A DNA stretch of 64,000 bases from Heptranchias perlo (lineage: Eukaryota), in the NCBI RefSeq assembly GCF_035084215.1, contig NC_090364.1, forward strand, positions 4,278,001 to 4,342,000. The letters are read 5' to 3'. The notes under the pieces are model-generated. The model saw only the letters and a list, made by a program, of their open reading frames with translations, had not been told where the DNA came from and ran no database searches. This document shows positions 5,128 to 58,976 of this stretch, in pieces; the first letter of the stretch is position 1, and each line of letters opens with the position of its first letter. A program made the position numbers and the translations under genes.

Positions 5128-5139
5128 GCTGTTAGTTTT

Positions 5140-21677: not shown

Positions 21678-21876
21678 CTTAACTTTTCCTGTTAACAGAG
21701 ATTACTCTTCAAACACCACTACAGGAACAACCTAACCTCTTCCCTCACAAGCTCTTGTATTTATACTACTGGGACAGCCTGCAGTTAAACAGGGTATGAC
21801 ATCACCAATGATGATTGACAATCCCTGATAGCCACTCAGGAATCTTCCATGAATCCAGGCACCAATTAACAAAGGA

Positions 21877-21996
21877 ATCACTGTATTTTGGTTTGTTTTG
21901 TCTTAAATAAAACACACCCTACTGCCCCCGCCCCCTCTTAAAAGAGGGGGGGGGGCCTAAAACAAAAAAAACTCAATAAAAACAAATTTTAAAAAA
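21877..21996 (+). mobile_element. Tx1-clade 3'UTR-only insertion in copy-4 promoter (duplicated at 37758-37877)
   Basis: GT-rich tract + cccctcttaaaagagggg hairpin + A-rich tail; TSD aattaacaaagg at 21864-21875 and 21995-22006. Confidence 0.82.
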
Positions 21997-23214: not shown

Positions 23215-23350
23215 AAGGGCCTGTTTCCATGTTGTAACTTCTATGATTCTATTGCAGGCAATTGGGACTAGCTTAGTGGTATAAACTGGGCGACATGGAC
23301 ATGTTGGGCCGAAGGGCCTGTTTCCATGTTGTAACTTCTATGATTCTATA
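23215..23350 (+). mobile_element. Short CR1/HE1-type 3' tails, two in tandem (duplicated at 39096-39231)
   Basis: aagggcctgtttccatgttgtaacttctatgattctat occurs twice; second preceded by catggacatgttgggccg, a typical shark CR1 terminus. Confidence 0.65.
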
Positions 23351-24175
23351 ATCAAAAGTGATTAAGTCATTGGGAGATATACAGGAATCAATCAATCATT
23401 TATACCAGTCCTGATTACCCACCACCAACAAACTCCAAACCAGACAGACAGCAGTTTGATGTTTCTGCAGACTGGTGGGTTACTTAATTCCAGAACATTG
23501 CTAAGTATTGCCCTAGAGGAGAGAATGTTAAACAAAAGACTGCCTGCTCAAAGGAAGACACTAAGGTGGTTAATACTGTACAACACTTCAGTAATCCAGA
23601 GTGATGTGTGGCATGAGACTAATGCTAAAGTACCTCAATTGTAATTTCCCCCACTGACAGAAACAAGTCTGAAGCAGGTTGTAAAGCTGATGCACTTCCT
23701 TCTCCAGACTGGACAGTTATTACTGAAGACACTACAATGGGGAACAGGGGCCCTGAATTATTGTTTCAAAGCTTTGCAACATGCTGACATATGTAATGAA
23801 AACTGGAATTGTTACTGAGATCACAGTTGCAGAAATTGTGTATTTCCAAAATCCCCAATAAGCCTCTCAGTGAGGAGATGTGAGCACAGCCATCCTGGGC
23901 AGTACAGAATCAATTTTAGGAAGCTGGACCAGGAGGGGCTTATGTATTTGAAAAGTTCTAACTTGATCACTAGTTACTCAGCTGGGTGTCATGCAATGGG
24001 GATCTTGGTGATCAGATCAGCCACTCAATTATACAAAACAGACAAAGCAGTATAAAGATAAAGTTTTTATTTCTATGTACAGCAACAATGAGATGAGAAA
24101 AGTGGAAATTCACCACCAGAATTTAGTCACACTTCATTTTCACCAAGTATAGAATGAATGGTTATAGAACCCCAG

Positions 24176-27100: not shown

Positions 27101-30100
27101 CTCCGCACAGGGTGTACAGACCGAGGCTCCCCTACACACGTGGCTCATGACGCCTCTGAGGAACCCCATCACCGAGCCGGAGCGTCGGTACAATGACAGC
27201 CACACTGCTACCAGGTCTACAATTGAGCAGACCATAGGGCTGCTCAAGATGCGCTTCGGGTGCCTTGATCGTTCTGGGGGAGCGCTCCAATACACACCAT
27301 TCAGAGTGGGACGAATCATAGTTGTCTGCTGTGCCCTGCATAACATGGCACTACAGAGAGGGGTGCCGCTGGAGGAGGCCCAATCCACACCCGCCACCCA
27401 CGTTGAGGACGGCGATGAGGAGGAGGAGGACGCGGATGCGCCAGAGGATGGTGGACGACCCATGCGCCGAACCACGACTCACCGGGATGCTCGCCGGGCC
27501 AGGGAGGCACTCATACGTCAACGGTTCTCCTAGAGTCAGACAGTGCAAGGCGCCCACATCTCCACACCTGCGAGGGGCCATACCAGCCCCCTCCACTGAA
27601 GACTGTTGCCAGTACTCCTGCACCCACAGCAGTGTGCCCAATGGGTGGCAGCAGGTGTTCGCCGTCATGATGGCCTGCACGGAACGCACCTATTGCACAG
27701 GCCGCGGAAGAATGGACGAGAGGTGGCAGGAGTGGTGAGAATATAGTATTTAATATGTACAATGTGAGATAATATAAACAAAAAGTGTACAAATTAATAG
27801 ACACCCTGGTGCATTCCCTTTGTGCTTATAACGCCTTTGGATTTATTTTGCGGGTACCCCTACGTGGTGCTACCCCTGTGGCTCCAGCAGAGGTAGTGGC
27901 AGGTTGCTCCTGTTCTCGCCCTGACCGGGTAGATGCTTTGGGCGGACGGCCCCTGGGTTTCGGTGCCCGTGAGGGCACCTCCACAGACTGCTCCTCCTGC
28001 ACCGGGGCAGGGGCAGACTCGGCCACCTGGAGAGGAGGCACCATTGCGGGTACTGGTTGAGGGGGGGCAACGGGTGGGACGTGGGGGCGCCTTGAGAAGC
28101 GTCCCCGCTTCCATGTCCCCGGTCACCATCATCCCTCTCGTGGCCTCGGCCCACATCACCCCGTCCACCCTGCTGGACGGCAGTTTGGATGGCATGTGTG
28201 AGGCCTTGCAAGGCCACCTAGTGTATCCGTCAGCCTGTTTATGGCGGCGGAATGTTGCTCACCCTGAATCCGTACAGCCGTTGTCAGGGCCTGCACGGAC
28301 TCGATGTGGAGCTGTGCGTGACGCTCGAGGGAGGCCAGCCTGTCCTCCACCGCAGACATTCCTGCGACACTGTCGCTGGTACCCTCCTGTACCTGCGCCA
28401 CCAATGCCCTCATGCAGGAGTTGGACTCCTCCATCGCCTGCGCAATTGTGGACAATGCACGCGGCACCTCTCCCAGTACCTCAGCAATTAGCTGGTGCCC
28501 CTCGACAACTCTCCTTTTCACTGGTGGCCCCCTGGGTTCAGCATCTGGGTCCGGCTGAGCAGAGCCTGGAGATGAGTGCTCCCACCGACGCAGACCCTCC
28601 GCGGCTGCCCCTGCCACCAGGGTCTGCTCATGCTCACTCGTGCGCGGTGAATCACCAAGTGCTACCCCAACTAGTTGGCGAGGGGGACCCACCGAGGTGC
28701 GTGTCTCTGCGCTGGTGGATGGTTGGCTCAGATGTGACGATGCACCCTCAGAGACCGGCATATCCTCTGAGGAATCGCCCTCCTCAATCGCAGCGCTCGC
28801 AGACGGCCCTGCAAGAGAACAGAGGGCACTATGAGGCATGTGCACCAACGTTACGGTGCGCCTGATGGCAGGTGATGATACGGTCACTCGCGATCATGGG
28901 TGTTGAGTGTCAGCTTTCCCTTACCGGCCGTTTCTGCAGCGACAGACTCGCCATCTGCGACCGACAGGCAATGTGGTGTGCGGGCGAGGTCGAGCGCCTC
29001 CACCTCTGCGTCTGCGTCGGTGAGGTCTACCAGGTGCGGCGGGCCACCTCCGGTGCGTGCCCTTTCCCTGTGGCTCTTGCTCCTCTTCTCCCGTCAAGGC
29101 AAAACACAGATGCGTGAGTGGGTGCGTATTGCATAGTGAGACGCATCGAGCATCGGTGTGGGTGGGTTGAGCGTGGGGCAGATGGATGGGAGGATGCGTG
29201 TGCCACATGCTCATCCCATTGCATAGGGATTGGGGTGTGTGGTAGTGTTCGGGTGGGGACAGGGACGGTGGGTACTTGCGGGCACGGCGAGGATGGTGAG
29301 TGAGTGGCTGTGAGGATTGCTGCGGGAGCGCTGTGTTGGCTCTGCAGGAGGGGTTGTGATCTGTTTGGCGTGATGGTGGGGACGGGTTGTGGGAGGGTGC
29401 GTTAGTGTACTCACCTTGCCGGACCTAGTGAGGTAATTGAACCGCTTGCGGCACTGCTCCCATGTCCTTGGGGTGTTGGCCCTGCTGCTGACCTCCGCCG
29501 CCACCTCTGCCCATGCCTTCCTGGTGGCGGCAGCAGGGCACTTGCGTCCATCCGCAGGGAAGAGCGTGTCCCTCCTCCTCCTCACGCCCTCCAGCGTCAG
29601 CTGAGGCGCAAGGTCTGAAAAACGTGGCGCAGCCTTTCCCCTCGGGTGAGCCATCATCTGTAGCCTACTGATTGCAGCAGGAGGGGCTTTGGGAGACTGC
29701 CCCTTTAAGTGGAGCTCCTACATCGCGTCGACGCAGCTGGGGAGCGGAGAACCCGGAAGCAGGGCTTAACCAGGTCAATTATCCCACGATCGCACGGGGG
29801 ACGCACGCAATTAGCCGTCCGCGTTTTCCACGCTCCCGGAGGACCACCTGCTGGGAACCCGCAGGCCTGCTAAAATCAAGCCCTTAGTGTCACCTCAGTG
29901 AGGAAAACTTCAGCACAACAGGAGTATAAGTATGTCAGTCAATTAGAAAGGGGAGGGGAAGAAAGCCAGAACCAGCCAATGTTCCACTAACTAGTCACCC
30001 AAATCTAATTTCCCCCCACCAAGTTGCAAAAGTCAAACAGGTTTATGAATCCTCAAGATGAATTCTCTATTACAAACTTAATGGAACCCTTGAGTTAACA

Positions 30101-30415
30101 TCAGGATAGGACACAGCTATTAGAGCAGGGAACAATCTGTTAATAAGACCTTCAATGAAATCATTGTGGTAAGAGTATTCACTAGATTGAGACTGGGGAG
30201 GTCACAGAGGTACACTCTGAAGCCAATTCATTGACAAGAAACTCTATCTGCTTAGAATACAATGACATCACAGCCTTAATTTTGAAACTGTGCCCCAAAA
30301 ATACAAAACTCACCATAGAGAGATAAACATAGGAGGAATAGAGCTCCATATTGATCTGCTTGTTGACACCATCCTCACACTCCTTGTGATAGTTCTGCCA
30401 CACTTGGGAGGCCAT
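24176..30415 (-). CDS. fth1: Ferritin H/M-type subunit, copy 5 (173 aa); exons 30314-30415, 25841-25987, 24656-24781, 24176-24322
   Basis: Starts MASQVWQNY; intact exons; intron 1 enlarged by a 3.5-kb Harbinger; ends FDKHSLH*. Confidence 0.92.
26932..27533 (+). pseudogene. Harbinger DDE transposase remnant (N-terminus fused out of frame to C-terminus)
   Basis: [11 protein letters not shown]...HRVYRPR then jumps to [57 protein letters not shown]...CCALHN (HARBI1-like); catalytic core missing. Confidence 0.88.
27826..29657 (-). CDS. Harbinger Myb/SANT-like DNA-binding protein (spliced; exon 1 29415-29657; downstream exons approximate, probably frameshifted)
   Basis: APRFSD...LFPADGRK...[13 protein letters not shown]...[13 protein letters not shown] trihelix motif followed by a GTGAGT donor; coiled-coil-like segment at 28156-28800. 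Confidence 0.78.
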
Positions 30416-30495
30416 CTTAACTTTTACTATTAGCAAAACTCTCACTTTAAACACCACTGCAGAAACAATGTCACCTCTTCCCTCACAAGCTTTTG

Positions 30496-30746
30496 TATTT
30501 ATATTACTGGGACAGCCTGCATTTGAACAGGTTATGACATCACCAATGATGATTGACAATCCCTGATAGCCACTCAGGAATCGTCCATGAATCCAGGCAC
30601 CAATTAACAAAGGACAGGGGGTGGGGTGTGATTCCCAGAACCAATCAGAACTTTGGAATACAGGCAGGATTGGAGGATTATTGTGTGATGTCATTGCTGT
30701 TGGTTTCTTTGACTTTCCTCAAACGAAATCTGATCACATCTCTGTT
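30496..30746 (-). promoter_or_regulatory. Copy-5 ferritin promoter, sitting head-to-head with the Tx1 5' end
   Basis: TATAAATA (30496-30503), two TGACATCA motifs, three CCAAT boxes; same block as in other copies. Confidence 0.75.
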
Positions 30747-31477
30747 GGGTTGTCTTTCAGACACACCAGCTCGGCATTGGAGCTGATTCTGGCTGAACTG
30801 CCACTGAGTGGAGAGCAGAGAGAGCAGAGGGAGCAGGCCCTTGCCCGGGTCCCTCTGAGTCAAGGAGAAGGAGAAGGAGAAACCACCATCAACAAGGAGG
30901 GAGGGAGGGAGAAGAATACTACCAAACAGCAGCCGGGAGGGGTTGTGCTGCTGCTGCTGCTGCTGGTTTGCGACACCGAACAGAGGGAGGAAGAGGAGGT
31001 CGGTGCAGTGAGGTGCGTCGGCTGAAGGTAGGGGGAGGAAGAAGACTTCAGAGGACAGGGGTCCCCCCCAAGTGTCTGGCCCAGGACAGCTGGAGCTGCC
31101 TGGGTGAAGTTACTTTTTCAATCTTTGGAGGACTGAGCCTCGGCAGCTCCAGCTGTCTAGGGGAAGACATCTCCTCCCCCTGCCCACTGGAAGACAGACA
31201 GAAGAAGATCCACCTTTTAAGGTGCAACCCCGCCCCTCTTCCACCCACTTCTGCAGCAGCCTACCCCTGCAGACTCCCTCCTTCCCATTCCACCATTAAT
31301 CCCTCCCACCTTCTCTTGCTCTCCCGGATATTCTGGGGGAAAGTAAAACCAGCAAAGGGGCCCCTCTCCCAACCAAGCTCTGGGATTCGGGGAGAGAGGT
31401 TTCCTCAGGGCTTCTTTTAAAAAGGCCTAATTTCATCAGTGGGCCCGAGACTTGGGGTGGGTGTGGCTCCTGAAGTC

Positions 31478-33519
31478 ATGGCGTCACCATCTTCGCCGGT
31501 GCCGGGACCCAGCAGGACGTATGCGGCGGTTACCTCGGGGGCCGCTCCTACAGTTCGTGCCGCTCCTGCTGGGCCGGCGCCTTTCCGCCTCATTACCAGG
31601 AAGCATGGGGTGAAGAGCTACGCCCACCCCAACATGACCATTGAGGCCTGCGTTAAGGCCATGGCCGAGGTTGTCGGCCCCTCGGCCATCGTCGCGGCCT
31701 CAAAAATGTACGGGAGGGCGGTGTTCTTCCTGAGGTCCGAGCGGGCGGTGTCCCTGGCCCTTAGTAAGGGGCTCACGGTGGGCGGGACCTTCCTGCCGGT
31801 GGACCCGCTGGAGGCCACCGCGCAGCGGGTCATTCTATCTAACGTCCCGCCTTTCCTGTCGGACGAGCTCCTCCTCCCCCACCTACGTCAACTGGGGGAG
31901 GTGAGGTCGGGGGTAACGCCGCTGCCGCTCGGACTCAGGGAGAACAGCCTCCGGCATGTTTACTCCTTCCGTCGCCAGGCATTCGTCAAGCTGGCACGGG
32001 AGGAGGTTACGGAGGGGGGCTTTAACGCCCTCCACGAGGGGACCCCTTACCGCGTCTTTTGGACGGCAGAGGGTGGGCGGTGCCATGCCTGTAAGGAGGT
32101 GGGGCACCTGAAGAGGAACTGCCCTGCCTCTCAGGCCGCCAAAACAGCTACGGCGGCCGGGGCTGGCGCCGCCACCGCTCCTCCCCCCCAACCCCGCCCC
32201 CGCGTCGGGAGAGTCAACTGCGCGGGTGGAGGTTGTCGGCGAGGCCTCCGCCGGTGGGGGGGGGGGGGAGCGGGGGGAAGGGAACCCTCGCCCGAAAAAA
32301 GCGCGGAGAAAGAGAAAGAATCTCGAGGCTGGTCCCCAGGACATGAATAATCTTAGTCAGCCCGAGGCCGTGACCGCGGCCAGTCAACACCTCGCGGTCG
32401 CGACAGAGCCCGGGCTGGCGGGTGATCAGGAGGGAGCGGAGGTGGGGGCCCCAGCAGACATGGAGATCCCCCTCCCTCCGCGACCCTCCGGGAAGAAGAA
32501 AAGGCGCCACTCCCTGGAAGCGGAGGAGGTCCCTGGTAAGGGACGGCCCCCCGTGGAAGGGGAGGTGGCGCCAGCCACGGATCCTGTGGCCCCGCCCATT
32601 ATTTCTAACCAGCGGCAGGGGTCGTCTGCCTCTCGGGGGGAGGTGACCGAGCCCGTGCCTCCCGGGGGGGATGGGGAGACCCTGCTGATGGGGGGGGTCG
32701 CGGATCCGTGTACTGACGCCAGTATCCCGTTCACCGGGTCGGGAGTCCTGGGTGCCGGGTTGGGCGAGGCCGTTGCGGCCGAATTCGTCTGCCCCCGGCT
32801 TGACCTCTCCCAGGACCTGCTCGACCTGGTGGTTGGTTTTAATCGAAACATCTCACCGGCCGGGTCGGTCGGTGGCGGTGTGGGTGGGGAGACCCCCTCC
32901 TCTCAGTCTCTGGGCACGGTGCCGGGTGAGGTGGGAGAACACGTTCTCCCCGGTTTCCCCCTATATCCGGGTGCCAGTTTTTCACCGCTCGGAGGCTGGG
33001 GAGGGTCCCCGCCCGGCGCCGCCCTCTGACCCGGACCCCCCGGTGGAGCCCGGGGAGGACTCCTCTGCCGACGATCCTGGGGGTGGGATCGTGACAGAGG
33101 CGGGGCCGGCCGGCGCGGCCGTCCCGTTCTCCGCACCCTGTGCGGGGAGTGGGTTGGCCGCGGGCGACGATGACCCGGAGGAGGACGGAGACTCGGTGGT
33201 GGGCACTTGGGAGGATTTAGAGTTCGCCGCCAGTGAGGTGGTGGACGCCCTCGTGCCCTGCACCGAGTCTCCCCTCATCCCCGTTGAGGAACTCCGGAAT
33301 TTTGCGTCCGGTTGGAGCCATCGTCGCGATGGCGTCCGGCGGGCCCTCGACCGTTGGTCGGAGCCGGCGCAACTAATCTGCTCGGTCCGGGCTGCCGTCG
33401 CGTCCGTGGCCGCGGAAGAGTACGGCGGCGGGGACGGGCTGCGCCGGCTCAGTTCCCTCCTCGCCGGGCTCTTGGGGGAGTGGCGGTCGACTAGCGGCCC
33501 CGCTCCCTCTGCGCTTTAG
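31478..33519 (+). pseudogene. Tx1 ORF1 (nucleic-acid-binding/gag-like), split over three frames
   Basis: MASPSS...RKHGVK...IVAASKMYGRAVFFL...VILSNVPPFL...HVYSFRRQAF...CHACKEVGHLKRNC (CX2CX4HX4C) is characteristic of Tx1 ORF1; frame breaks lie in or near C/G runs (could be sequencing errors). Confidence 0.8.
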
Positions 33520-33548
33520 GTTTAAGTAGGTTGCGCTGTGCTCTTGTC

Positions 33549-36500
33549 ATGGAGATCACCATAGCCAGCCTCAACATCAACGGCGGCAGAGACGCCCGCC
33601 GTAGATTTGACAAGTTCTCGGTCCTTCGGGACGGGAAGTATGCGGTGTGCTTTCTGCAGGAAACCCACACCGTTCCGGGAGACGAGGCCACGTGGATCCT
33701 GGAATGGGGAGGGGGGGTCTACTTGAGTCACCTCGCCAGCGTTTCGAGCGGGGTGGCCATCTTGTTGGCCCCGACTTTTCAGCCGGAGATCTTGGGGGTC
33801 AAGGAGCCGGTGCCGGGCCGCTTGCTCCACGTAGCCCTTCGCCACGGGGACGTGCCGCTTCACCTGGTGAACGTGTACGCCCCCTGGTCCGAGGGCGAGC
33901 AAGTGAGCTTCTTTGAGGAAGTGTCCACTTACCTGAACTCCGTCGACGCCGGCGAGTGCATTATCCTCGGGGGGGATTTTAACCGTACCCTCGAGGCGAG
34001 GGACCGCTCCGGTCCCGTGCGTGCCCGAACGGCGACGGGGAAGTTGAGGGACCTGGTCGGGTCCTTCGACTTGGTGGACGTCTGGCGGAATCTCCATCCC
34101 GACTCCGGCCAGTTCACCTTTGTGAGGGCCGGAGGAGGGAGCTCCAGAATCGACCGCCTGTACGTTTCGCGGGCGTACGCCTCCTGCGTCCCGTCGGCCT
34201 CCATCCGGCCGGTGTCGTGCTCGGACCACCACCTGGTGTGGATGGAGCTCGCTCTGCTCCGCGCCCGGTCGGGGTCCGCGTACTGGCACTTTAACAACCG
34301 GCTGCTGGAGGACGCGCGGTTCCGGGACTCGTTCCGTCTGTTCTGGAGCGACTGGAGAGGGAAGCGGGGAGGCTTCTCCTCCTTGAGGCTATGGTGGGAC
34401 GTGGGCAAGGCTCACGTCCGCCTCTTCTGTCAAGAGTACGCGAGGGGGTCGACCAAGAGGCGGGAGTCCGAGGTCAGGCGGTTGGAGCAGGAGGTGCTTG
34501 GCCTGGAGTCCCGTCTCGGTCAGGCTGCCGAGGATCCGGCCCTGCGGCAGGTGTACGAGGAGAGGAAGGACGCTCTGAGGGACCTGCAACTGGTCGGGTC
34601 CCGAGGAGCGTACGTGAGGTCGCGGCTCCAGCTCCTTCAGGACCTGGACTGCGGCTCTCCCTTCTTCTACTCGCTGGAAAAGCGGCGGGGGGCTCGTAAG
34701 CAGCTCCTTACGCTGCTGGCCGACGACGGGACCCTCGTCTCGGACCCGGAGGGAGTCAGGGTCCGTGCTCGATCTTACTACGAGGCTCTGTTCTCTCCGG
34801 ATCCGTCCAGCGAGGAGGCGCGCAGAGTTTTGTGGGAGGACCTGCCGAAGGTTGGCCCGGAGGACGCCGACAGTATGGATGCTCCGCTGAGTTTGGCGGA
34901 GCTGACCGGCGCCCTCCACCAGCTCTCTAGGGGCAAGTCCCCGGGGCTGGACGGGCTGACCGTGGAGTTCCTCAGGGCCTTCTGGGACGTCCTGGAGGGC
35001 GACTACGCGCGGGTCCTGGGGGAATGTCTGGCGACCGGGGAGATGCCCCTTTCGTGGCGCAGAGCGGTCGTGGTCCTGCTGCCTAAGAAGGGGGATCTCC
35101 GTCACCTTAAAAACTGGCGCCCGGTCTCCCTCCTCAGCACGGATTATAAGGTCTTTGCCAAGGCGATGTCTGCTCGCCTGGGCACCGTGCTGGCCCACAT
35201 GATCCACTCCGACCAGTCCTACACGGTCCCGGGCCGGAAGATCCACGATAACATCCATCTGGTCTGGGACCTGATCCACCATTCCCAGAGGGCTGGTCTG
35301 TCGGTCGCCTTCCTTTCCTTAGATCAGGAGAAGGCGTTCGACAGGGTGGATCACGAGTATCTATTCGGGACACTGCGCGCTTTCGGGTTCGGGTCGCATT
35401 TCGTCGCCCGGATCCGACTTCTGTTCGCCGCCGCGGAGTGTCTGATTAAGGTTAACGGATCCTTGACGGCGCCCCTTCGCTTCGGGAGAGGAGTGCGTCA
35501 GGGGTGCCCCATGTCCGGCCAATTATACGCCGTCTGCGTGGAGCCTTTCCTGCGCCTCTTGCGCAAGAGGTTGTCGGGACTGGCTCTGCGCGAGCCGGAC
35601 GTGGAGGTCGTCCTTTCGGCTTACGCCGACGACGTGCTCCTCGTGGTCACGGATCCCCTTGACTTGCGGAGGATGCGCGAGTGCCAAGAGGTCTACTCTG
35701 CGGCGTCTTCCGCAAGGTTCAACTGGGAGAAATGTTCCGGACTCCTGGTGGGTCAGTGGCGGGTGGACTCCCTGCCGGAGGAGCTCAGGCCTTTCGCCTG
35801 GAGTACCACGCACCTCCGGTACCTGGGAGTCTACCTCGGCCCTGCCGAGGAAGCCTGGCCGGCGAACTGGGAAGAGCTGGAGGCCAAGGTCGCCGCTCGC
35901 CTGGCGCGCTGGACAGGACTGCTCCGAGTGTTATCCTACAGGGGTCGAGTGCTGGTCATAAACCAGCTGGTGGCCGCCATGTTGTGGTACAGATTGGTCA
36001 CTTTGACCCCACCCCCCGAGTTTGTCGCCAAAATTCAGAAGAAGTTTGTCGACTTCTTCTGGGCCAGAGGGATACACTGGGTCGCTGCCGCGGTCCTGAG
36101 TCTCCCGCTTAGGGAGGGCGGTCAGGGGCTGGTGTGCGTCCGCACCCAGGTGGCAACTTTCCGCCTTCGGACGCTGCGGCGATACCTGTACGTTGAGCGT
36201 CCTCTTAGATGGCGTGCGCTGGCGACGTATTTTTTCCGCCAGCTGCACGGCCTGAACTACGACACGCAGCTCCTGTTCATCTCGCTGGTGGGCGGCCGCA
36301 CGTCTTTGCAGGAGCTGCCTGTCTTTTACCAGGATCTGCTCAGGGTCTGGAACATGGTCGCCTCTGGTCGGAGCTCTCGCCCGTCAGGGGTAGCGGCCGT
36401 CCTGCAGGAGCCGCTGCTCGGGAATCCGTTCCTCCGCGATATCGGCTTCGGCCACTCGCGGCTGTCGGTGCGGAGGGCCGTGGCCGGTCGGGTGACCAGA

Positions 36501-37454
36501 GTCAGGGACGTCCTGGATGGCGGTGGGTCGGGTTGGTTGGAGCCGTGGGCGCTCGCCGCACGGATGTCCTCGTGGCGTGCCGGGGACGCGGCCATCGCCA
36601 TCCGGGCGTTGAAATCGGCGCTCGGCCCTGACTCCACTCGGGATGTGGAGGCGGCTCAGGCGTGCGGAGCCATCCCGTCCGACCTGACCCCCGTTCGGAC
36701 GGAGTTCCTCCTCGGCGCCAAACCCCGGAACCTCCCTCGGGGGGCCGCGCCTCACAACTTGAGCCGTCTCTCGGAAATTCCCTCCGTGCCGTTTCACACC
36801 GCGCGGAGGGATTTCCTGTACGGGCTGCTCCTGCACACCATCCACTTCCTCGCCCTCGTCTCTCGGCCGGACACGCCCTGGCGTACCATCCTGCCGTCCG
36901 GCGGAGACGGGGGTCCCCATTGGGAGGCTCTCTATACAGGGGTCCTCCCGTGTTACTTTGGGGATCTGGGGTGGAGGGTGGCGCACGGAGCAGTCGCGTG
37001 CAACCGGCGGTTACGCCATTTCACGGACACCCAGGCCGCTTGTGATTTCTGCGGCCTGGAGGAGTCCGTGTTCCATCTGTACACTGGGTGTGCGAGACTG
37101 CAGCCCCTGTTCCATTATTTGAAGGGGCTGCTCCTCAAGTTCTGGCTGCACTTCAGTCCCACGCTCCTGATCTTTGGCCGCCCTGTGAGGAGGGGGGCGG
37201 GCAGGTCGGTGGACGTTCTCGTGGGCCTGCTCCTGGGCCTGTCCAAGGTGGCCATCCACAGGTCTAGGATGATCGTGGTCCGTGGGGGCGGTCGCTCGGC
37301 CTGTCTGCCTCTCTTCCGCGGAATGCTCCGCGCCCGGGTGGCCCTGGAGATGGAGCACGCGGTGTCTGCCGGTACGCTCGAGGCTTTCCGCGGCCGGTGG
37401 GCACCGCAGGGGCTGGAGTGCATCCTGGACGAGGAAAATAACATTTTAATTTGA
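33549..37454 (+). CDS. Tx1 ORF2, intact 1301 aa: APE endonuclease + reverse transcriptase + C-terminal Cys/His motif
   Basis: SLNING, FLQETH, GGDFN, RID, SDH endonuclease motifs; KSPGLDG, NWRPVSLL, SLDQEKAFD, GVRQGCP, YADD, YLG RT motifs; CDFC..ESVFHLYTGC. Confidence 0.96.
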   Translation: MEITIASLNINGGRDARRRFDKFSVLRDGKYAVCFLQETHTVPGDEATWILEWGGGVYLSHLASVSSGVAILLAPTFQPEILGVKEPVPGRLLHVALRHGDVPLHLVNVYAPWSEGEQVSFFEEVSTYLNSVDAGECIILGGDFNRTLEARDRSGPVRARTATGKLRDLVGSFDLVDVWRNLHPDSGQFTFVRAGGGSSRIDRLYVSRAYASCVPSASIRPVSCSDHHLVWMELALLRARSGSAYWHFNNRLLEDARFRDSFRLFWSDWRGKRGGFSSLRLWWDVGKAHVRLFCQEYARGSTKRRESEVRRLEQEVLGLESRLGQAAEDPALRQVYEERKDALRDLQLVGSRGAYVRSRLQLLQDLDCGSPFFYSLEKRRGARKQLLTLLADDGTLVSDPEGVRVRARSYYEALFSPDPSSEEARRVLWEDLPKVGPEDADSMDAPLSLAELTGALHQLSRGKSPGLDGLTVEFLRAFWDVLEGDYARVLGECLATGEMPLSWRRAVVVLLPKKGDLRHLKNWRPVSLLSTDYKVFAKAMSARLGTVLAHMIHSDQSYTVPGRKIHDNIHLVWDLIHHSQRAGLSVAFLSLDQEKAFDRVDHEYLFGTLRAFGFGSHFVARIRLLFAAAECLIKVNGSLTAPLRFGRGVRQGCPMSGQLYAVCVEPFLRLLRKRLSGLALREPDVEVVLSAYADDVLLVVTDPLDLRRMRECQEVYSAASSARFNWEKCSGLLVGQWRVDSLPEELRPFAWSTTHLRYLGVYLGPAEEAWPANWEELEAKVAARLARWTGLLRVLSYRGRVLVINQLVAAMLWYRLVTLTPPPEFVAKIQKKFVDFFWARGIHWVAAAVLSLPLREGGQGLVCVRTQVATFRLRTLRRYLYVERPLRWRALATYFFRQLHGLNYDTQLLFISLVGGRTSLQELPVFYQDLLRVWNMVASGRSSRPSGVAAVLQEPLLGNPFLRDIGFGHSRLSVRRAVAGRVTRVRDVLDGGGSGWLEPWALAARMSSWRAGDAAIAIRALKSALGPDSTRDVEAAQACGAIPSDLTPVRTEFLLGAKPRNLPRGAAPHNLSRLSEIPSVPFHTARRDFLYGLLLHTIHFLALVSRPDTPWRTILPSGGDGGPHWEALYTGVLPCYFGDLGWRVAHGAVACNRRLRHFTDTQAACDFCGLEESVFHLYTGCARLQPLFHYLKGLLLKFWLHFSPTLLIFGRPVRRGAGRSVDVLVGLLLGLSKVAIHRSRMIVVRGGGRSACLPLFRGMLRARVALEMEHAVSAGTLEAFRGRWAPQGLECILDEENNILI

Positions 37455-37556
37455 ACACTTGGTTTTGGTTTATTTGGTTTTTAGTATTTAAGCACACCCC
37501 ACACCCCCCCTTCTTATAAAAGGGGGGCCTATTAACAAAAAAAAAAAAAAAAAAAA

Positions 37557-37734
37557 TCCAGGCACCAATTAACAAAGGACAGAAGGTGGGGTGTGATTCC
37601 CAGAACCAATCAGAGCTTTGGAATACAGGTGGGATTGGAGAATTATTCTGTGATGCCATTGCTGTTGGTTTCTTTGACTTTCCTCAAACGAAATCTGATC
37701 ACATCAAAAAAAAAAAGAAAAAAAAAAAAAAAAA
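37557..37734 (+). other. 149-bp ferritin-promoter fragment followed by a second poly(A): probable 3' transduction
   Basis: 37557-37705 aligns to 30592-30740 with 8 mismatches, then ~29-nt poly(A), then the sequence resumes as a copy of 21854 onward. Confidence 0.75.
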
Positions 37735-40056
37735 TCCAGGCACCAATTAACAAAGGAATCACTGTATTTTGGTTTGTTTTGTCTTAAATAAAACACACCC
37801 TACTGCCCCCGCCCCCTCTTAAAAGAGGGGGGGGGGCCTAAAACAAAAAAAACTCAATAAAAACAAATTTTAAAAAATTAACAAAGGGCAGGGGGTGGGG
37901 GGGTGATTCTCAGAGTCAATCAGAGCTTTGGAATACAGGCAGGATTGGAGGATTATTCTGTGATGTGATTGCTGTTGGTTTCTTTGACTTTCCTCAAACT
38001 GAATCTGATAACATCTCTGTTCCCAGAATCAGAGCTTCGCAACATATCTCAAAGAGATCGATGTGTTTACAAATGGAAATCCCATCTCGTAGATGGGGTC
38101 CAGCACAATTGGTTCTCAGTTAACCTGTCTCTTGGACAATTGATGGGAATCTTGGTGTGTCCAGAAAGAGTCCGTTATACCCAGATTCACAATGCTGATC
38201 ACCACAATAGATTGAAGGAGACTGACCTTCACCAGACAGTCCGCAGTGAGTCCGCAAACCAACCGACAACGAGTCGGGGAAATGGAAAGTGGATCAGTTG
38301 GGATCGTCAAACAGAATTCTGTTGCTCCATCACTGTAAAATGCGATGTGGAGTTTTATCTTCATGACCTTTAAGAGCTGTTAAGTCTAGAATTTACTTTG
38401 CACTGTTCATTCATCTCCTACAAACCTCCAATCTGTTGTGAGGAAAAGTTTTATACCTGAAATGTCAACTATCTCGCATTTTCTCAAGCGATATTGCCTG
38501 ACCAGATTGTAGTATCATCAGTATTATGTTCCTATCCTGTTGTAACTCTGGTCGAACAACCAGACATTGAATAGAAGGACCACAAAGCCTCAAGAACAGA
38601 GAAGAGTGAATTACATAAAACTTACACCAAAACAGGCAGTTAGGTCCAACCAGTTCATGTTGTTTATCCTCCACACAAGTAGTCCTAATCCCATGTGCCT
38701 GCCCTGTTACCAAACCATGGTATCTAGTCTTACTCATATAGGCATCCTCCATCCCCTGCCAGTCAAGCCAATATTTAATTTGTAGATAGTGTAATCATGT
38801 ATAACAGCTCACCTTGTCTGCTACCTTCGCCCATGAAAGAATATTTATTGGGCTTATGTGCCTCAGTACTTCATTCACTCAAGGTGAACTATTTTTAAAC
38901 ACCATTACTAGGTGTATTTAATTTCTCATGACTTCAGGAAAACTCAAAAATCACTACTATTTGTAGGTTAAGGGCAGTCTTTTTTGTACAAGTTGTGGTA
39001 ATTAGAAAAATACTAAGTGAAGTATAGATTATAATGTACATCAAATATTGAATTTCAATTAACTTGTGAATTCCTATAACAGTTAGTGGTGCTATAAGGG
39101 CCTGTTTCCATGTTGTAACTTCTATGATTCTATTGCAGGCAATTGGGACTAGCTTAGTGGTATAAACTGGGCGACATGGACATGTTGGGCCGAAGGGCCT
39201 GTTTCCATGTTGTAACTTCTATGATTCTATAATCAAAAGTGATTAAGTCATTGGGAGATATACAGGAATCAATCAATCATTTATACCAGTCCTGATTACC
39301 CACCACCAACAAACTCCAAACCAGACAGACAGCAGTTTGATGTTTCTGCAGACTGGTGGGTTACTTAATTCCAGAACATTGCTAAGTATTGCCCTAGAGG
39401 AGAGAATGTTAAACAAAAGACTGCCTGCTCAAAGGAAGACACTAAGGTGGTTAATACTGTACAACACTTCAGTAATCCAGAGTGATGTGTGGCATGAGAC
39501 TAATGCTAAAGTACCTCAATTGTAATTTCCCCCACTGACAGAAACAAGTCTGAAGCAGGTTGTAAAGCTGATGCACTTCCTTCTCCAGACTGGACAGTTA
39601 TTACTGAAGACACTACAATGGGGAACAGGGGCCCTGAATTATTGTTTCAAAGCTTTGCAACATGCTGACATATGTAATGAAAACTGGAATTGTTACTGAG
39701 ATCACAGTTGCAGAAATTGTGTATTTCCAAAATCCCCAATAAGCCTCTCAGTGAGGAGATGTGAGCACAGCCATCCTGGGCAGTACAGAATCAATTTTAG
39801 GAAGCTGGACCAGGAGGGGCTTATGTATTTGAAAAGTTCTAACTTGATCACTAGTTACTCAGCTGGGTGTCATGCAATGGGGATCTTGGTGATCAGATCA
39901 GCCACTCAATTATACAAAACAGACAAAGCAGTATAAAGATAAAGTTTTTATTTCTATGTACAGCAACAATGAGATGAGAAAAGTGGAAATTCACCACCAG
40001 AATTTAGTCACACTTCATTTTCACCAAGTATAGAATGAATGGTTATAGAACCCCAG

Positions 40057-43000
40057 TCAATGCAGGCTGTGCTTGTCAAACAGGTACACTCCCATGCCAT
40101 TCTCAGGGGCTCCCAGTCTCTTCAGGTTGGTGATGTGATCTCCAAGCTTCTTGATCATCTTCACTTGTTCATCCAAGTAGTGGGTCTCCAGGAAGTCACA
40201 CAACTGGAAGAGAGAAACTAGTGAGTGTAGTTTGCTCAAACATGTCAAGGTGAGGATCATCTCCAGAAGTGACATTATTCTTGCTAATTTCCTGGACTAG
40301 AATAATGGTAAAAGTAGTGCACTTGGGGGGGATTCATACATTTAGCCAGACAAGACCAAGATTACCCCACAAATGGAAAGTCTGCTATTGTATTAAACTA
40401 GAAATCACCTTCAGTTCCATTTTGGTACCTTAGATATCAAGAGCCCTGGGAGTAGTTTAGTGAAACAAACCTATGAAAAACCACCAATTTATAAGTGGCA
40501 GATTCCAATTCCACCCTCAACTAATTTGAAACTTACATGAGGGTCAGTGCTCTCCTTGGACAGTCTGTGCAGATCCAGCAGACTCTGGTTCACATGCTTC
40601 TCCATCTGCAGAGCTCTCTGCATCACCTCCAGACCATTGCTCCACTCATCCTGCTCTGGCTTCTGAAAAAAAGGGAAGAGTTGTCTTGTCAGCACACCTA
40701 CAATGGAAGCTGAAAGTCCAAGCACTGTTATTCTCAAGAACAGCAGGGTTAGAAGCAATGGACATTAATCGTGCACCTGAAGAATAGGAATACAAGGAAG
40801 GATTGTGGAGTCAATAACTGGGATGACATTGGAGGCCATTGCTGGATACTAGGAGCCGATCAGTCCATTGACTGCCATTTTAAACTTGCAGCTCTAATCC
40901 CAATTCCCACCTTTTTCCCATAACCCTAAACACCCTCCAAGTAGTTATGCATCCCTTTTGAAATAGGGAATTGGCTTTGCATCTATGGCTTTCTAGATTA
41001 GAAAGCACTGTCAACTTGAAGCTTGTAACTATTTTTGCACTTGCAAACTAGTTTAAAAGTTGCATGTACTTGGATCCTCAAGTTGCTTTTTAAATATGTT
41101 CACACCTCCCCTCAAAAATCCTTCCTTTAGAAGGTTCTGCAATCTGCCATTCTTGTATTGTACTGGGAAGCAGTACAAACATCTACCAATGCCATTTAGT
41201 GGTGAATTGGAGGAAAACAAGACTATGTCTTACTTTAGAGTTACTGACCAGCCTTGATCAACTCTTCCAAATATAAAAAAGTGTTTCTCCTGGAGTGGTT
41301 AGGGCCTGAACAAAAGGGCATGAGGGTGGTTACAAGGAGTGTGAACTTACTAGTTGACAATATTCCTTTAACCCCATTTCTTCCTCTGATCTCCACACCA
41401 GTTTCCTATTAATGTTACAATTTTTCTTCCAGTTCCTTGCCCCACAAAGATTTAGTTAGCAATTTGTGCAGAAACTCATCTTTCTGAACATCCACATACA
41501 TTGATCCTCCTATATCCACTAGCTCAGTGACCCAAAGAACATCAACTCACCCTAATCACTTATACCTTTCCAAGTCCTCACTTATTCTTGCCCAATACTA
41601 ACTATTTTACTCAATCTCACTTGCTTTTAAGAACTTTTGGGTGTAATGGCAAGATATCAAACTATTTAAAATAATGAGGAAACTTTTTAAGCTACCCAAG
41701 ATTCATGACATTAAATCTAACCTTGACGTCCTCCAAGATGATTCGGCCCCCACGCTGATTCTGGAATTTCAGCAGTTTCTCAGCGTGCTCCCGTTCCTCA
41801 TGTGACTGCTCCTTGAAGAACTCAGCAAAGTGACGCAGGGCAACATCATCCCGGTCAAAGTAATAGGACTGTGGGGAAAGACAAAAATGGGAAGAGTCAG
41901 GTCAGGCCTAAATCTCATCCATGGCCAGCTCAAAATGATAGTAACATCATGGTAGATAAATTACCCATTTGCTGACTCAATACTTCGTTTTCAATTAAGG
42001 GGCACAGTTTCTAAACAAAAAGTGTTTTCCTTGCAAGTCAAACTCAATTTGATTCATTGATCTTCTAAAAATGTTGAAAATCCCTCCATGAAGTAACCAA
42101 GAGTTCATTAGAAGAAGGACACATTATGGAGCAATAGGGCTTTTTGGATTAAAGTTTCATTTCAGCAATCAAACTACACTTCAGCTCAACTTATCAGTGG
42201 CATCTACTTCAGTTCCCAGATAGAAGTCTAAAATTAGTGCAGGGAAGAGAGCAAAAGGTTTCAAATTCAGTAGTTTAACAACTTCAAACACTTGGGGCTC
42301 GATTTTAGCGTCAGGTTTCCTGCGGGTTTCCAGCAGGGGGGGGCCCCGAAAATCCCGATATTCAGTCACGTGACCGGATCACGCCGAGATCCCAGCCACT
42401 TCCGGGTGCCGCGCAGGCCCCGCTGGTGGGAATCCCGCAGGCAATTAAAGCCAGCGGGGTTCCACTTGAGTGTACTTACCTTGCTTGTTGAGGTCATTAA
42501 ATGAGCTGAAGCAGCTGTCAAAACAGGAAGTGTGGGATTTTAGCTTCAACGCAGTGTGTTTCACACACTGGTAGAAGCAGTCTCCCTTCAACCGGTCGTG
42601 TTCCAGCCAGCAGCCTGTGGCAGCTGCCAAAGGTGCACTCCACAGCGGGTGGGAGAGCCCTCACCCACGCAGGAGGCCACCGCGTCACGTAGGGCAACCC
42701 CTGCCCTCCACCACCCCCGCCAAGCCAGAGGACAGACCGACGTGAAACCGCAGCCCCAGTGCGAGGAACCACCTACCTAGCCTGCACAACCCCTCAGACC
42801 AACACCTGCCAGATGGGTGGTGCGTTGACATCCTCGGAGGACGAACAGCATGACCAGCCCCAGCAGCCTCGCAGTCCACCTCGGAGACGTGGAGCCCCCC
42901 AACACGGTGCTGCGGCACACCCACCTGCACAGCAGGAGGGAGGGCAACCGCAGAGAGAGATGCGTCGCAGGAGGCACTACCCTCCGCACAGGGTGTACAG

Positions 43001-46000
43001 ACCGAGGCTCCCCTACACACGTGGCTCATGACGCCTCTGAGGAACCCCATCACCGAGCCGGAGCGTCGGTACAATGACAGCCACACTGCTACCAGGTCTA
43101 CAATTGAGCAGACCATAGGGCTGCTCAAGATGCGCTTCGGGTGCCTTGATCGTTCTGGGGGAGCGCTCCAATACACACCATTCAGAGTGGGACGAATCAT
43201 AGTTGTCTGCTGTGCCCTGCATAACATGGCACTACAGAGAGGGGTGCCGCTGGAGGAGGCCCAATCCACACCCGCCACCCACGTTGAGGACGGCGATGAG
43301 GAGGAGGAGGACGCGGATGCGCCAGAGGATGGTGGACGACCCATGCGCCGAACCACGACTCACCGGGATGCTCGCCGGGCCAGGGAGGCACTCATACGTC
43401 AACGGTTCTCCTAGAGTCAGACAGTGCAAGGCGCCCACATCTCCACACCTGCGAGGGGCCATACCAGCCCCCTCCACTGAAGACTGTTGCCAGTACTCCT
43501 GCACCCACAGCAGTGTGCCCAATGGGTGGCAGCAGGTGTTCGCCGTCATGATGGCCTGCACGGAACGCACCTATTGCACAGGCCGCGGAAGAATGGACGA
43601 GAGGTGGCAGGAGTGGTGAGAATATAGTATTTAATATGTACAATGTGAGATAATATAAACAAAAAGTGTACAAATTAATAGACACCCTGGTGCATTCCCT
43701 TTGTGCTTATAACGCCTTTGGATTTATTTTGCGGGTACCCCTACGTGGTGCTACCCCTGTGGCTCCAGCAGAGGTAGTGGCAGGTTGCTCCTGTTCTCGC
43801 CCTGACCGGGTAGATGCTTTGGGCGGACGGCCCCTGGGTTTCGGTGCCCGTGAGGGCACCTCCACAGACTGCTCCTCCTGCACCGGGGCAGGGGCAGACT
43901 CGGCCACCTGGAGAGGAGGCACCATTGCGGGTACTGGTTGAGGGGGGGCAACGGGTGGGACGTGGGGGCGCCTTGAGAAGCGTCCCCGCTTCCATGTCCC
44001 CGGTCACCATCATCCCTCTCGTGGCCTCGGCCCACATCACCCCGTCCACCCTGCTGGACGGCAGTTTGGATGGCATGTGTGAGGCCTTGCAAGGCCACCT
44101 AGTGTATCCGTCAGCCTGTTTATGGCGGCGGAATGTTGCTCACCCTGAATCCGTACAGCCGTTGTCAGGGCCTGCACGGACTCGATGTGGAGCTGTGCGT
44201 GACGCTCGAGGGAGGCCAGCCTGTCCTCCACCGCAGACATTCCTGCGACACTGTCGCTGGTACCCTCCTGTACCTGCGCCACCAATGCCCTCATGCAGGA
44301 GTTGGACTCCTCCATCGCCTGCGCAATTGTGGACAATGCACGCGGCACCTCTCCCAGTACCTCAGCAATTAGCTGGTGCCCCTCGACAACTCTCCTTTTC
44401 ACTGGTGGCCCCCTGGGTTCAGCATCTGGGTCCGGCTGAGCAGAGCCTGGAGATGAGTGCTCCCACCGACGCAGACCCTCCGCGGCTGCCCCTGCCACCA
44501 GGGTCTGCTCATGCTCACTCGTGCGCGGTGAATCACCAAGTGCTACCCCAACTAGTTGGCGAGGGGGACCCACCGAGGTGCGTGTCTCTGCGCTGGTGGA
44601 TGGTTGGCTCAGATGTGACGATGCACCCTCAGAGACCGGCATATCCTCTGAGGAATCGCCCTCCTCAATCGCAGCGCTCGCAGACGGCCCTGCAAGAGAA
44701 CAGAGGGCACTATGAGGCATGTGCACCAACGTTACGGTGCGCCTGATGGCAGGTGATGATACGGTCACTCGCGATCATGGGTGTTGAGTGTCAGCTTTCC
44801 CTTACCGGCCGTTTCTGCAGCGACAGACTCGCCATCTGCGACCGACAGGCAATGTGGTGTGCGGGCGAGGTCGAGCGCCTCCACCTCTGCGTCTGCGTCG
44901 GTGAGGTCTACCAGGTGCGGCGGGCCACCTCCGGTGCGTGCCCTTTCCCTGTGGCTCTTGCTCCTCTTCTCCCGTCAAGGCAAAACACAGATGCGTGAGT
45001 GGGTGCGTATTGCATAGTGAGACGCATCGAGCATCGGTGTGGGTGGGTTGAGCGTGGGGCAGATGGATGGGAGGATGCGTGTGCCACATGCTCATCCCAT
45101 TGCATAGGGATTGGGGTGTGTGGTAGTGTTCGGGTGGGGACAGGGACGGTGGGTACTTGCGGGCACGGCGAGGATGGTGAGTGAGTGGCTGTGAGGATTG
45201 CTGCGGGAGCGCTGTGTTGGCTCTGCAGGAGGGGTTGTGATCTGTTTGGCGTGATGGTGGGGACGGGTTGTGGGAGGGTGCGTTAGTGTACTCACCTTGC
45301 CGGACCTAGTGAGGTAATTGAACCGCTTGCGGCACTGCTCCCATGTCCTTGGGGTGTTGGCCCTGCTGCTGACCTCCGCCGCCACCTCTGCCCATGCCTT
45401 CCTGGTGGCGGCAGCAGGGCACTTGCGTCCATCCGCAGGGAAGAGCGTGTCCCTCCTCCTCCTCACGCCCTCCAGCGTCAGCTGAGGCGCAAGGTCTGAA
45501 AAACGTGGCGCAGCCTTTCCCCTCGGGTGAGCCATCATCTGTAGCCTACTGATTGCAGCAGGAGGGGCTTTGGGAGACTGCCCCTTTAAGTGGAGCTCCT
45601 ACATCGCGTCGACGCAGCTGGGGAGCGGAGAACCCGGAAGCAGGGCTTAACCAGGTCAATTATCCCACGATCGCACGGGGGACGCACGCAATTAGCCGTC
45701 CGCGTTTTCCACGCTCCCGGAGGACCACCTGCTGGGAACCCGCAGGCCTGCTAAAATCAAGCCCTTAGTGTCACCTCAGTGAGGAAAACTTCAGCACAAC
45801 AGGAGTATAAGTATGTCAGTCAATTAGAAAGGGGAGGGGAAGAAAGCCAGAACCAGCCAATGTTCCACTAACTAGTCACCCAAATCTAATTTCCCCCCAC
45901 CAAGTTGCAAAAGTCAAACAGGTTTATGAATCCTCAAGATGAATTCTCTATTACAAACTTAATGGAACCCTTGAGTTAACATCAGGATAGGACACAGCTA

Positions 46001-46296
46001 TTAGAGCAGGGAACAATCTGTTAATAAGACCTTCAATGAAATCATTGTGGTAAGAGTATTCACTAGATTGAGACTGGGGAGGTCACAGAGGTACACTCTG
46101 AAGCCAATTCATTGACAAGAAACTCTATCTGCTTAGAATACAATGACATCACAGCCTTAATTTTGAAACTGTGCCCCAAAAATACAAAACTCACCATAGA
46201 GAGATAAACATAGGAGGAATAGAGCTCCATATTGATCTGCTTGTTGACACCATCCTCACACTCCTTGTGATAGTTCTGCCACACTTGGGAGGCCAT
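40057..46296 (-). CDS. fth1: Ferritin copy 6 (duplicate of copy 5); exons 46195-46296, 41722-41868, 40537-40662, 40057-40203
   Basis: Identical exons to copy 5 at offset 15881. Confidence 0.92.
42295..45764 (+). mobile_element. Harbinger transposon, duplicate of 26414-29883
   Basis: Same TIRs, transposase remnant (43028-43414) and Myb/SANT exon (45296-45538). Confidence 0.92.
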
Positions 46297-47366
46297 CTTA
46301 ACTTTTACTATTAGCAAAACTCTCACTTTAAACACCACTGCAGAAACAATGTCACCTCTTCCCTCACAAGCTTTTGTATTTATATTACTGGGACAGCCTG
46401 CATTTGAACAGGTTATGACATCACCAATGATGATTGACAATCCCTGATAGCCACTCAGGAATCGTCCATGAATCCAGGCACCAATTAACAAAGGACAGGG
46501 GGTGGGGTGTGATTCCCAGAACCAATCAGAACTTTGGAATACAGGCAGGATTGGAGGATTATTGTGTGATGTCATTGCTGTTGGTTTCTTTGACTTTCCT
46601 CAAACGAAATCTGATCACATCTCTGTTGGGTTGTCTTTCAGACACACCAGCTCGGCATTGGAGCTGATTCTGGCTGAACTGCCACTGAGTGGAGAGCAGA
46701 GAGAGCAGAGGGAGCAGGCCCTTGCCCGGGTCCCTCTGAGTCAAGGAGAAGGAGAAGGAGAAACCACCATCAACAAGGAGGGAGGGAGGGAGGGAGGGAG
46801 AAGAATACTACCAAACAGCAGCCGGGAGGGGTTGTGCTGCTGCTGCTGCTGCTGGTTTGCGACACCGAACAGAGGGAGGAAGAGGAGGTCGGTGCAGTGA
46901 GGTGCGTCGGCTGAAGGTAGGGGGAGGAAGAAGACTTCAGAGGACAGGGGTCCCCCCCAAGTGTCTGGCCCAGGACAGCTGGAGCTGCCTGGGTGAAGTT
47001 ACTTTTTCAATCTTTGGAGGACTGAGCCTCGGCAGCTCCAGCTGTCTAGGGGAAGACATCTCCTCCCCCTGCCCACTGGAAGACAGACAGAAGAAGATCC
47101 ACCTTTTAAGGTGCAACCCCGCCCCTCTTCCACCCACTTCTGCAGCAGCCTACCCCTGCAGACTCCCTCCTTCCCATTCCACCATTAATCCCTCCCACCT
47201 TCTCTTGCTCTCCCGGATATTCTGGGGGAAAGTAAAACCAGCAAAGGGGCCCCTCTCCCAACCAAGCTCTGGGATTCGGGGAGAGAGGTTTCCTCAGGGC
47301 TTCTTTTAAAAAGGCCTAATTTCATCAGTGGGCCCGAGACTTGGGGTGGGTGTGGCTCCTGAAGTC

Positions 47367-49405: not shown

Positions 49406-49434
49406 GTTTAAGTAGGTTGCGCTGTGCTCTTGTC

Positions 49435-55449: not shown

Positions 55450-58976
<3,527 letters not shown>

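Follow-up and report, generated by a model that had tools for sequence, protein, structure and literature searches.

L1 elements give rise to 3' transductions that bear double poly(A) tracts, and the partnered type of these is the described system closest to the structure that we report here; such transductions end at predicted poly(A) sites and are favoured by weak poly(A) signals in the source element (bioRxiv 10.1101/2024.08.27.596794). The same preprint reports that, in ten tumours, 14 of the 152 rearrangements bridged by human L1 were duplication-like, and it mentions, for chimeric L1 copies, the proposal that cDNA pairs with homologous DNA (bioRxiv 10.1101/2024.08.27.596794). In the Tx1 clade, a family is considered target-specific when more than 20% of its flanks are of one type (PMC4494074), and the targets named for Tx1 and other site-specific non-LTR elements in the accessible portions of the literature are RNA genes, microsatellites, satellites, telomeric repeats and transposons (PMC4494074, PMC4640811, PMC8869645). 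In the literature that we searched, Repbase and most subscription papers aside, we found no Tx1 element described at ferritin genes or preferring the promoters of a protein-coding gene family.

We will focus here on a 64-kb stretch of the Heptranchias perlo genome, which we will call the window and whose structure is read from one assembly. A first-pass annotation had recognized a piece of ferritin promoter enclosed between two poly(A) tails downstream of a Tx1 element, and had proposed that it was transduced from a donor inserted in another ferritin promoter. A 3' transduction, the source being a Tx1 at AA|TCCAGG in a promoter that belongs to an X-like paralog and lies outside the window, is indeed the best reading, to which we give a probability of about 0.7. 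The transduction alone is an ordinary by-product, probably devoid of regulatory effect; the larger point is that the fragment flags a ferritin gene duplication linked to a retrotransposon, an element with an apparent preference for ferritin promoters.

The ferritin gene array

The window is a tandem array of four-exon ferritin genes, all on the minus strand, in the order G1, G2, G3, Y, X, X', G6, G7 (an orphan promoter with exon 1) and G8 (partial). G3 and G6 match the NCBI Heptranchias perlo ferritins P0135 and P0138, respectively, at 173/173 residues each. Gene X (24176..30415, minus strand) is open, with 4 exons, 173 aa and GT-AG introns, and X' (exons at about 40057-46296) is a second open copy of it, with identical exons and an identical proximal promoter.

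Several features of the array can be recorded on their own account. Exon 4 is identical between G3 and X, which suggests, at the level of sequence, gene conversion among the ferritin paralogs. The first cysteine of G1 exon 4 (1301-1444) is changed to arginine, and G6 (55453-58970) carries several unusual substitutions. Intron 1 of G6 holds a 227-codon frame (57564-58244) that has no Pfam match and presumably resembles the end of a LINE RT. G7 (60518-61187), which has no exons 2-4 of its own, carries an old Tx1 3' piece and adjoins the G6 promoter, for which gene it could provide an alternative first exon. Intron 1 of X is occupied by a PIF/Harbinger-type DNA transposon (26414-29883) with DDE_Tnp_4 and Myb/SANT ORFs and 15-bp terminal inverted repeats with one mismatch, and a copy of it lies 15,881 bp further.

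The Tx1 elements

Two long Tx1 copies, A (30747..37536) and B (46628..53384), lie on the plus strand upstream of X and X', pointing away from these genes. ORF2 of copy A (33549-37454, plus strand) is open over 1301 aa and encodes an endonuclease and an RT, with PF03372 and PF00078 both above cut-off. It is 50% identical to the ORF2 of Xenopus Tx1L over 99% of its length, and in the RT tree it groups with the Xenopus Tx1L, sturgeon and turtle rows with 100/100 support (13 named rows of 118 matches; no L1 outgroup), so that, judged by these comparisons, A and B are assigned to the Tx1 clade of non-LTR retrotransposons. The ORF1 of this clade carries a zinc knuckle; that of copy A, from 31478, is frameshifted and scores 20.5 bits against PF00098 (zinc knuckle; cut-off 20.8). 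Copy B, resident at site 2 of the X' promoter, has a degenerate tail and a stop in ORF2. A strong hairpin (inverted repeat) can be found in the 5' UTR (31085-31157), where all Rfam miRNA matches are sub-threshold.

The catalytic motifs of copy A are intact, and it carries Y626F in a column that is Y in 112/112 homologs. At the 21 amino-acid differences between the middle parts of the two copies, departures from the homolog consensus number 6 in A and 6 in B, with 9 unresolved. We considered whether A might be the younger or cleaner copy, and the middle part does not support this, given these equal departures and the CpG losses (6 in A, 3 in B); only the private changes of the last 500 bp (12 in A versus 24 in B) lean that way, as a trend. 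The equal departures, together with Y626F, indicate that the donor resembles an aged copy rather than a pristine master.

The 3' ends of the elements are of two types, long and short (37437-37536 versus 53308-53362). The long one, which follows a CCCC/GGGG hairpin-like stretch, is found in A, in the G1 units and in the Y insertion, all near site 1, and the short one in B and in the 12030 copy; the type may track either subfamily or site.

The double tail and the fragment that it encloses

As the first-pass annotation had it, copy A ends in a poly(A) tail of A20 (37537..37556, plus strand), which is the inherited donor junction, followed by 149 bp of ferritin upstream sequence (37557..37705, plus strand) and by a second tail, A11-G-A17 (29 nt; 37706..37734, plus strand). 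The fragment extends from a motif that we call site 1 (AA|TCCAGG) to a point 15 nt into the target-site duplication (TSD) of a second site. Its closest relative in the window is the segment of promoter X that runs from site 1 to site 2 (30592..30740, plus strand), to which it aligns ungapped with exactly 8 substitutions (141/149 match; E 1e-62), the number that had been announced; it aligns likewise, ungapped and with 8 substitutions, to 46473-46621, and the other six promoter pieces of the window differ from it by 11-27 substitutions plus indels. It was also correctly stated that no promoter of the window equals the fragment exactly: the longest exact match elsewhere in the window is 49 bp, and two diagnostic k-mers of the fragment occur once each. 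All 8 differences from X fall in fragment positions 27-100. At 2 of them the fragment shows the state common to the other paralogs, and the remaining 6 are private and all transitions. The last 49 bp are those of X, including G37690 and C37700, which are X-only bases among the paralogs of the window. Being closest to X and sharing its private bases, and yet carrying 8 substitutions, the fragment must come from a sister of X that is absent from the window.

In the minus-strand ferritin genes, the corresponding segment lies 97-245 bp upstream of the TATA-like motif. The fragment had been described as moving CCAAT and TGACATCA motifs with it. This stands for CCAAT (37565 and 37606, with ATTGG at 37634) and fails for TGACATCA, since, where X has a motif of this type (TGATGTCA at 30686), the fragment has the mutated form TGATGCCA (at 37651). 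The proximal TGACATCA/CCAAT pair (30535-30547 in X) and the TATA fall outside it. We thus rejected the idea that a working promoter was transferred, as there is no TATA, TGACATCA is mutated and the nearest ferritin start is 6.8 kb off, across the element; from its sequence, a regulatory role of the fragment is unlikely.

The junction AA|TCCAGG recurs independently in the window, at tail 1/37557, at 4531/4532 and at 37734/37735. Tail 1 joins the fragment exactly there, from which it follows, in agreement with the original proposal, that the fragment was formerly the 3' flank of an element inserted at AA|TCCAGG in a promoter outside the window. The same junction bears on a template switch, in which reverse transcription would first have copied a short antisense transcript of the promoter, itself polyadenylated, and then crossed over to the tail of a Tx1 RNA. 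Although template switching has been reported for the Tx1-mobilised SINEU (PMC4494074), coincidence alone would have to place the start of the switched piece precisely at AA|TCCAGG, where two other tails are attached to the same base, and we regard this as extremely improbable.

The 15.9-kb duplication and the chimeric copy A

Past tail 2, 247/247 bases tested agree with site 1 of paralog Y (from 21854), and agreement with X lasts for only 23. The unoccupied left copy of this recipient site lies at 21852..21875 (plus strand), at the left edge of a 15,881-bp tandem duplication. Its first unit (21854..37734) comprises the Y upstream region, ferritin X, the X promoter, copy A and the transduction, and its second unit (37735..53384) comprises the Y upstream region, ferritin X', the X' promoter and copy B. 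The identity of the two units begins exactly at Y site 1 after tail 2, with two shared A, so that tail 2 marks both a new priming site and the duplication junction. The recipient is therefore the promoter of paralog Y, a point that the first-pass annotation had missed.

The duplication had also been called near-identical apart from the fragment. This is correct for 21854-32465 (2 substitutions in 10,611 columns) and incorrect for the Tx1 copies: divergence is 1/8,893 columns outside the element and 1/1,718 in its first part, then rises to 59/4,388 (Fisher p 1e-7 for this step) and to 50/620. The first change point lies at 32293-32466 and the second at about 36590-36866. These steps make copy A a chimera, whose first 1.7 kb (from 30747 to about 32293-32466) is a fresh copy of B and whose remainder is foreign. 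The stretch from 32.4 kb to 37705 is thus a single foreign block, in which a different element is followed by its own tail and flank. On the right, this block shows the hallmarks of target-primed reverse transcription at site 1 of Y; on the left, it passes in register into B through a homologous join. The chimeric state of A implies that homology linked the transduced insertion to B, and that ferritin gene X was duplicated in the process. No short TSD flanks the whole insert, the left partner of the 3' junction being at 21854 and a 10.5-kb duplication taking the place of the TSD; the insert thus acts like a transduction and not like a canonical insertion. At the 15.9-kb duplication, two distant breakpoints are bridged by retrotransposed sequence that has a tail and a nick motif. 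That copy A inserted into a fragment already in place was considered and discarded, as at 21854, in the left unit, the sequence is Y's own and the fragment is absent.

Units that are 99.99% identical outside the Tx1 copies could be expected if the assembly had put two haplotypes or two repeat copies in tandem. The window, however, contains no N, the junction has unique sequence and falls exactly on the recurrent Tx1 junction, and A and B switch between sequences that are 1.3% apart, all of which makes such an artefact very unlikely.

Site 2 and the question of a local duplication

Site 2 lies 134 bp from site 1. The left copy of the TSD of B (46607..46627, plus strand; 18-21 bp) has 1 mismatch to the right copy (53382-53402) and is duplicated at 30726-30746. 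Copies A and B have the same 5' junction. Since B shares this junction and has its own TSD at site 2, it was at site 2 that the element at X inserted, and another event must have produced the tail 1 found at AA|TCCAGG.

This is also what weighs against the simplest local explanation, namely that A inserted at site 1 of X and that the fragment is an old target-site duplication of 149-155 bp that has since drifted. X is the closest promoter in the window, the fragment covers nearly the whole interval from site 1 to the 5' junction of A, and two X-only bases are shared. Nevertheless, B has the same 5' junction with no such repeat and with a proper 18-21-bp TSD, and the fragment is followed by a second tail and by the upstream DNA of Y instead of that of X. 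Its divergence (8/149) is far above that of the duplicated flank (1/8,893; p 4e-14) and above that of the middle parts of A and B (59/4,388; p 0.0014). The statement that the fragment is no local TSD is hence borne out, and we give almost no weight to the contrary idea, which may nonetheless be true at the donor locus.

The fragment ends 15 nt past the site-2 nick and 6 nt before the 5' junction of Tx1 in X, whereas an end placed at random within 0.3-1 kb would coincide this closely with site 2 only 2-8% of the time. In G3, an A10 run (16759-16768) sits exactly at site 2, where the other paralogs have mixed sequence; it may be the scar of a poly(A)-only insertion or the product of slippage.

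The second tail

Copy A has no AATAAA, which is present in B, and only a TATAAA can be found, 22 nt before tail 1. At the end of the fragment, a search with 13 poly(A) hexamer variants gave none within 80 nt and only an AATACA at -84. What lies past that end depends on the state of the promoter. In an X-type promoter occupied by Tx1, the sequence is GU-rich, with 10 dinucleotides of this kind in 20 nt (top 1.6% of the 20-mers of the window), whereas empty promoters have 4-5 GU-type dinucleotides in 30 nt. An A-rich stretch precedes the end point, and the A-rich plus GU-rich layout arises only if a second Tx1 follows at the donor. Such a layout is that of non-canonical poly(A) sites and is sufficient for some human ones (PMC2876958), which makes RNA processing at the fragment end possible. 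If the donor also had a B-like element at site 2, a read-through tail would be reconciled with the missing hexamer. A B-like second element fits the B-like middle and the G1-like 3' end of A (8.9% versus 13% for B), and it fits poorly with the divergence of the fragment (5.4% versus 1.3%). Under the reading that we prefer, tail 2 would have come from host polyadenylation.

It is here that a mosaic made at the DNA level has to be weighed. The fragment would then be the in-situ flank of an element at a paralog Z, brought in by recombination with B, and tail 2 would be separate, through a Tx1 event that left nothing but poly(A), with priming at Y site 1 and joining to the top-strand cut at Z site 2 or, in a variant, through a genomic A-tract at Z site 2 serving as a priming or recombination point. 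The end of the fragment within the site-2 TSD interval with no hexamer, the A10 run at site 2 in G3 and a middle of copy A that is aged like that of B all agree with it, and solitary poly(A) inserts and trans-joined nicks have been described for L1 (bioRxiv 10.1101/2024.08.27.596794). It nevertheless needs two rare events, both recent enough to leave 2 differences in 10.6 kb, and it is opposed by the GU-rich sequence after, and the A-rich sequence before, the end point in a Tx1-occupied X-type promoter; we consider it unlikely, and retain read-through transduction.

A self-cleaving ribozyme or snRNA head at the 5' end of the element, which would set the RNA end, was also tried and rejected: of 20 Rfam matches in 30400-31600, none reached the gathering score or was a ribozyme, and the fold z was -1.4. 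Elsewhere, at 4245-4279, a miniature double tail (A21, TCTGT, A9) contains the bases TCTGT that lie past the fragment end point in every ferritin promoter; these five bases hint at either another nick or a 5-nt transduction.

The donor

That the donor lies in a ferritin promoter has indirect support. Two Heptranchias ferritins, P0134 and P0137, match no gene of the window, which points to further paralogs beyond it. In a third ferritin model, P0136, on another contig, the first 92 residues are the antisense of the ORF2 end of this Tx1 (82-84% identity), spliced to ferritin exon 2, so that this first exon is either an annotation artefact or an exonised element. The P0136 element was rejected as the donor, being too divergent (82% aa identity to A, with a 4-aa deletion). 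P0136 was the sole match among 26 candidates searched with the antisense Tx1 piece (proteins of 132-420 aa), which means that 1/1 of the gene models with this piece is a ferritin. Screening of 120 ferritins gave one more Tx1 match, in the sawshark P0177, which is in sense orientation and which we keep as weak (pairwise E 2e-5 in a small database, profile E 0.02). The 149-bp tag itself is a direct handle on the source element.

A preference for the ferritin promoter zone within the window

With a 3'-end profile, 11 distinct Tx1 pieces were found in the window, a count that omits the duplicate of the 21878 piece and three weak opposite-strand matches overlapping listed pieces. Ten of the 11 join within a zone of about 215 bp, which starts 40 bp before site 1 and reaches 175 bp past it, the single one outside being at 12024-12482. 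Pieces in the zone are found in 5 of the 7 distinct promoters (G1, G2, Y, X and G7), while G3 has its A10 run only and G6 has nothing. Counting one event per promoter, 5/6 fall in 3.8% of the sequence (p ~5e-7, for a zone drawn post hoc in one window), and the window is a biased sample for flank preference. The pieces diverge from A by up to about 30%, occur in both orientations and use several nick sites, which speaks for a long-lived regional preference and not for one strict site.

The G1 promoter contains a mini-array (4006..4835, plus strand) of three units of target plus Tx1 fragment with one shared 5' junction. Units u1 and u2 have the 5' junction and the first 16 nt of u3, and their 3' parts are of a young subfamily. 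Over 114 nt, the two are identical, at a distance of 9% from A; u3 shows differences at 4/42 nt, and its continuation is 27% from u2. Read from these sequences, the mini-array would be a small-scale case in which a 3' end of young type was joined, in register and within no more than 42 nt, to a resident piece of greater age.

Other pieces complete this inventory. A short inverted Tx1 3' end (4605-4643), flanked by 14-bp repeats with one mismatch, is nested in the older G1 element. Reverse-orientation 3' pieces at 4933-5128 (G1) and 10231-10571 (G2) both lie about 110 bp from site 1 and have different 5' ends. The Y promoter carries a short 3'-end insertion (21876-21994, with its copy at 37757-37875), the 12-bp TSD of which starts 10 bp off site 1.

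Proposed course of events

The chimera and the junctions can be read directly from the sequence, and the order of events that we reconstruct from them would be as follows. A donor Tx1 outside the window would have AA|TCCAGG as its insertion point, in antisense orientation within the promoter of a ferritin paralog that resembles X. Because its poly(A) signal is weak, its transcript would pass the A-tail, run 149 nt into the distal promoter and gain a second tail there. A nick at the same AA|TCCAGG motif in the promoter of Y, where the junction is found, would then prime the reverse transcription of this RNA. At least 5.2 kb in, the new sequence would be fused, in register, with its resident homologue, copy B, which lay about 10.5 kb beyond, giving the observed chimera. 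The join would duplicate all that lies between the nick and the crossover, leaving two copies of ferritin X, and the fragment would have moved two Tx1 target motifs and no core promoter.

As for when the join occurred, we tentatively prefer, at somewhat less than even chances, that it took place during integration, through pairing of the cDNA with B. A later join, in which a new insertion of the normal kind was already in place and crossed over unequally with the B of the other homologue, is a rather doubtful possibility. We lean to the one-step join because the G1 promoter repeats the pattern at a scale that is too short for ordinary unequal crossover.

A broader and more speculative view, which as a whole we hold to be unlikely while still worth stating, is that ferritin promoters are the main target of this shark Tx1 lineage, that its integration routinely ends by pairing with a resident copy, each event duplicating from about 50 bp to whole ferritin genes, and that read-through copies new target sites. 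If this were true, Tx1 would help to build and turn over its home gene array, and the donor would be a tandem Tx1 pair around a 155-bp spacer.

Comparison with known systems

Like the partnered 3' transductions of human L1, the structure shows an element, a first tail, the downstream flank of the source and a second tail at an endonuclease-type site, together with a weak source signal (bioRxiv 10.1101/2024.08.27.596794). The terminal tail adjoins the endonuclease target of the family (AA|TCCAGG of Y), as a partnered transduction requires. It departs from them in that the element belongs to the Tx1 clade, the flank is the element's own target, there is neither a short TSD nor an end hexamer, and the source presumably lies outside the window. 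The duplication likewise recalls the duplication-like L1 rearrangements, where distant breakpoints are bridged by a retrotransposed piece with a tail and a nick motif at one end; these are somatic, with templated pieces that are typically <250 bp and lie within 15 bp of the site (bioRxiv 10.1101/2024.08.27.596794), whereas here, in an assembled genome, the copy is 10.5 kb long, it includes an intact host gene and the join lies inside a resident sister element.

With the target-preferring Tx1 families (Xenopus Tx1L, Keno, Kibi, Koshi, Tx1-Mar; PMC4494074), our element shares the clade and the clustered or tandem insertions that sandwich target DNA and, with Tx1-Mar in particular, two preferred regions and both orientations (PMC4494074). 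In contrast to the families as listed there, it is found in a promoter zone, that of a protein-coding gene family, and uses several nick sites. If the ferritin-promoter preference held genome-wide, it would extend the idea of the "multicopy safe harbour", because the target lists, in their accessible portions, hold RNA genes, repeats and transposons and no protein-coding promoters.

R2 is a further relative in behaviour, being a site-preferring non-LTR element in a tandem gene array that is linked to copy gain (PMC10266012), and the transcripts of R2Ol also bear downstream target sequence (PMC6530143). Yet R2 acts through endonuclease breaks and its benefit to the host has been shown (PMC10266012), while here we have one duplication; and, unlike in R2Ol, the carried target is copied into DNA and not used for annealing only. 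Each mechanistic step thus appears to have its precedent in L1 or R2, and the combination and the class of target appear undescribed. In this way, a single assembled vertebrate locus, in which one breakpoint is resolved to the nucleotide and the other to about 170 bp, shows how a tandem family can gain an entire host gene through a site-preferring retrotransposon.
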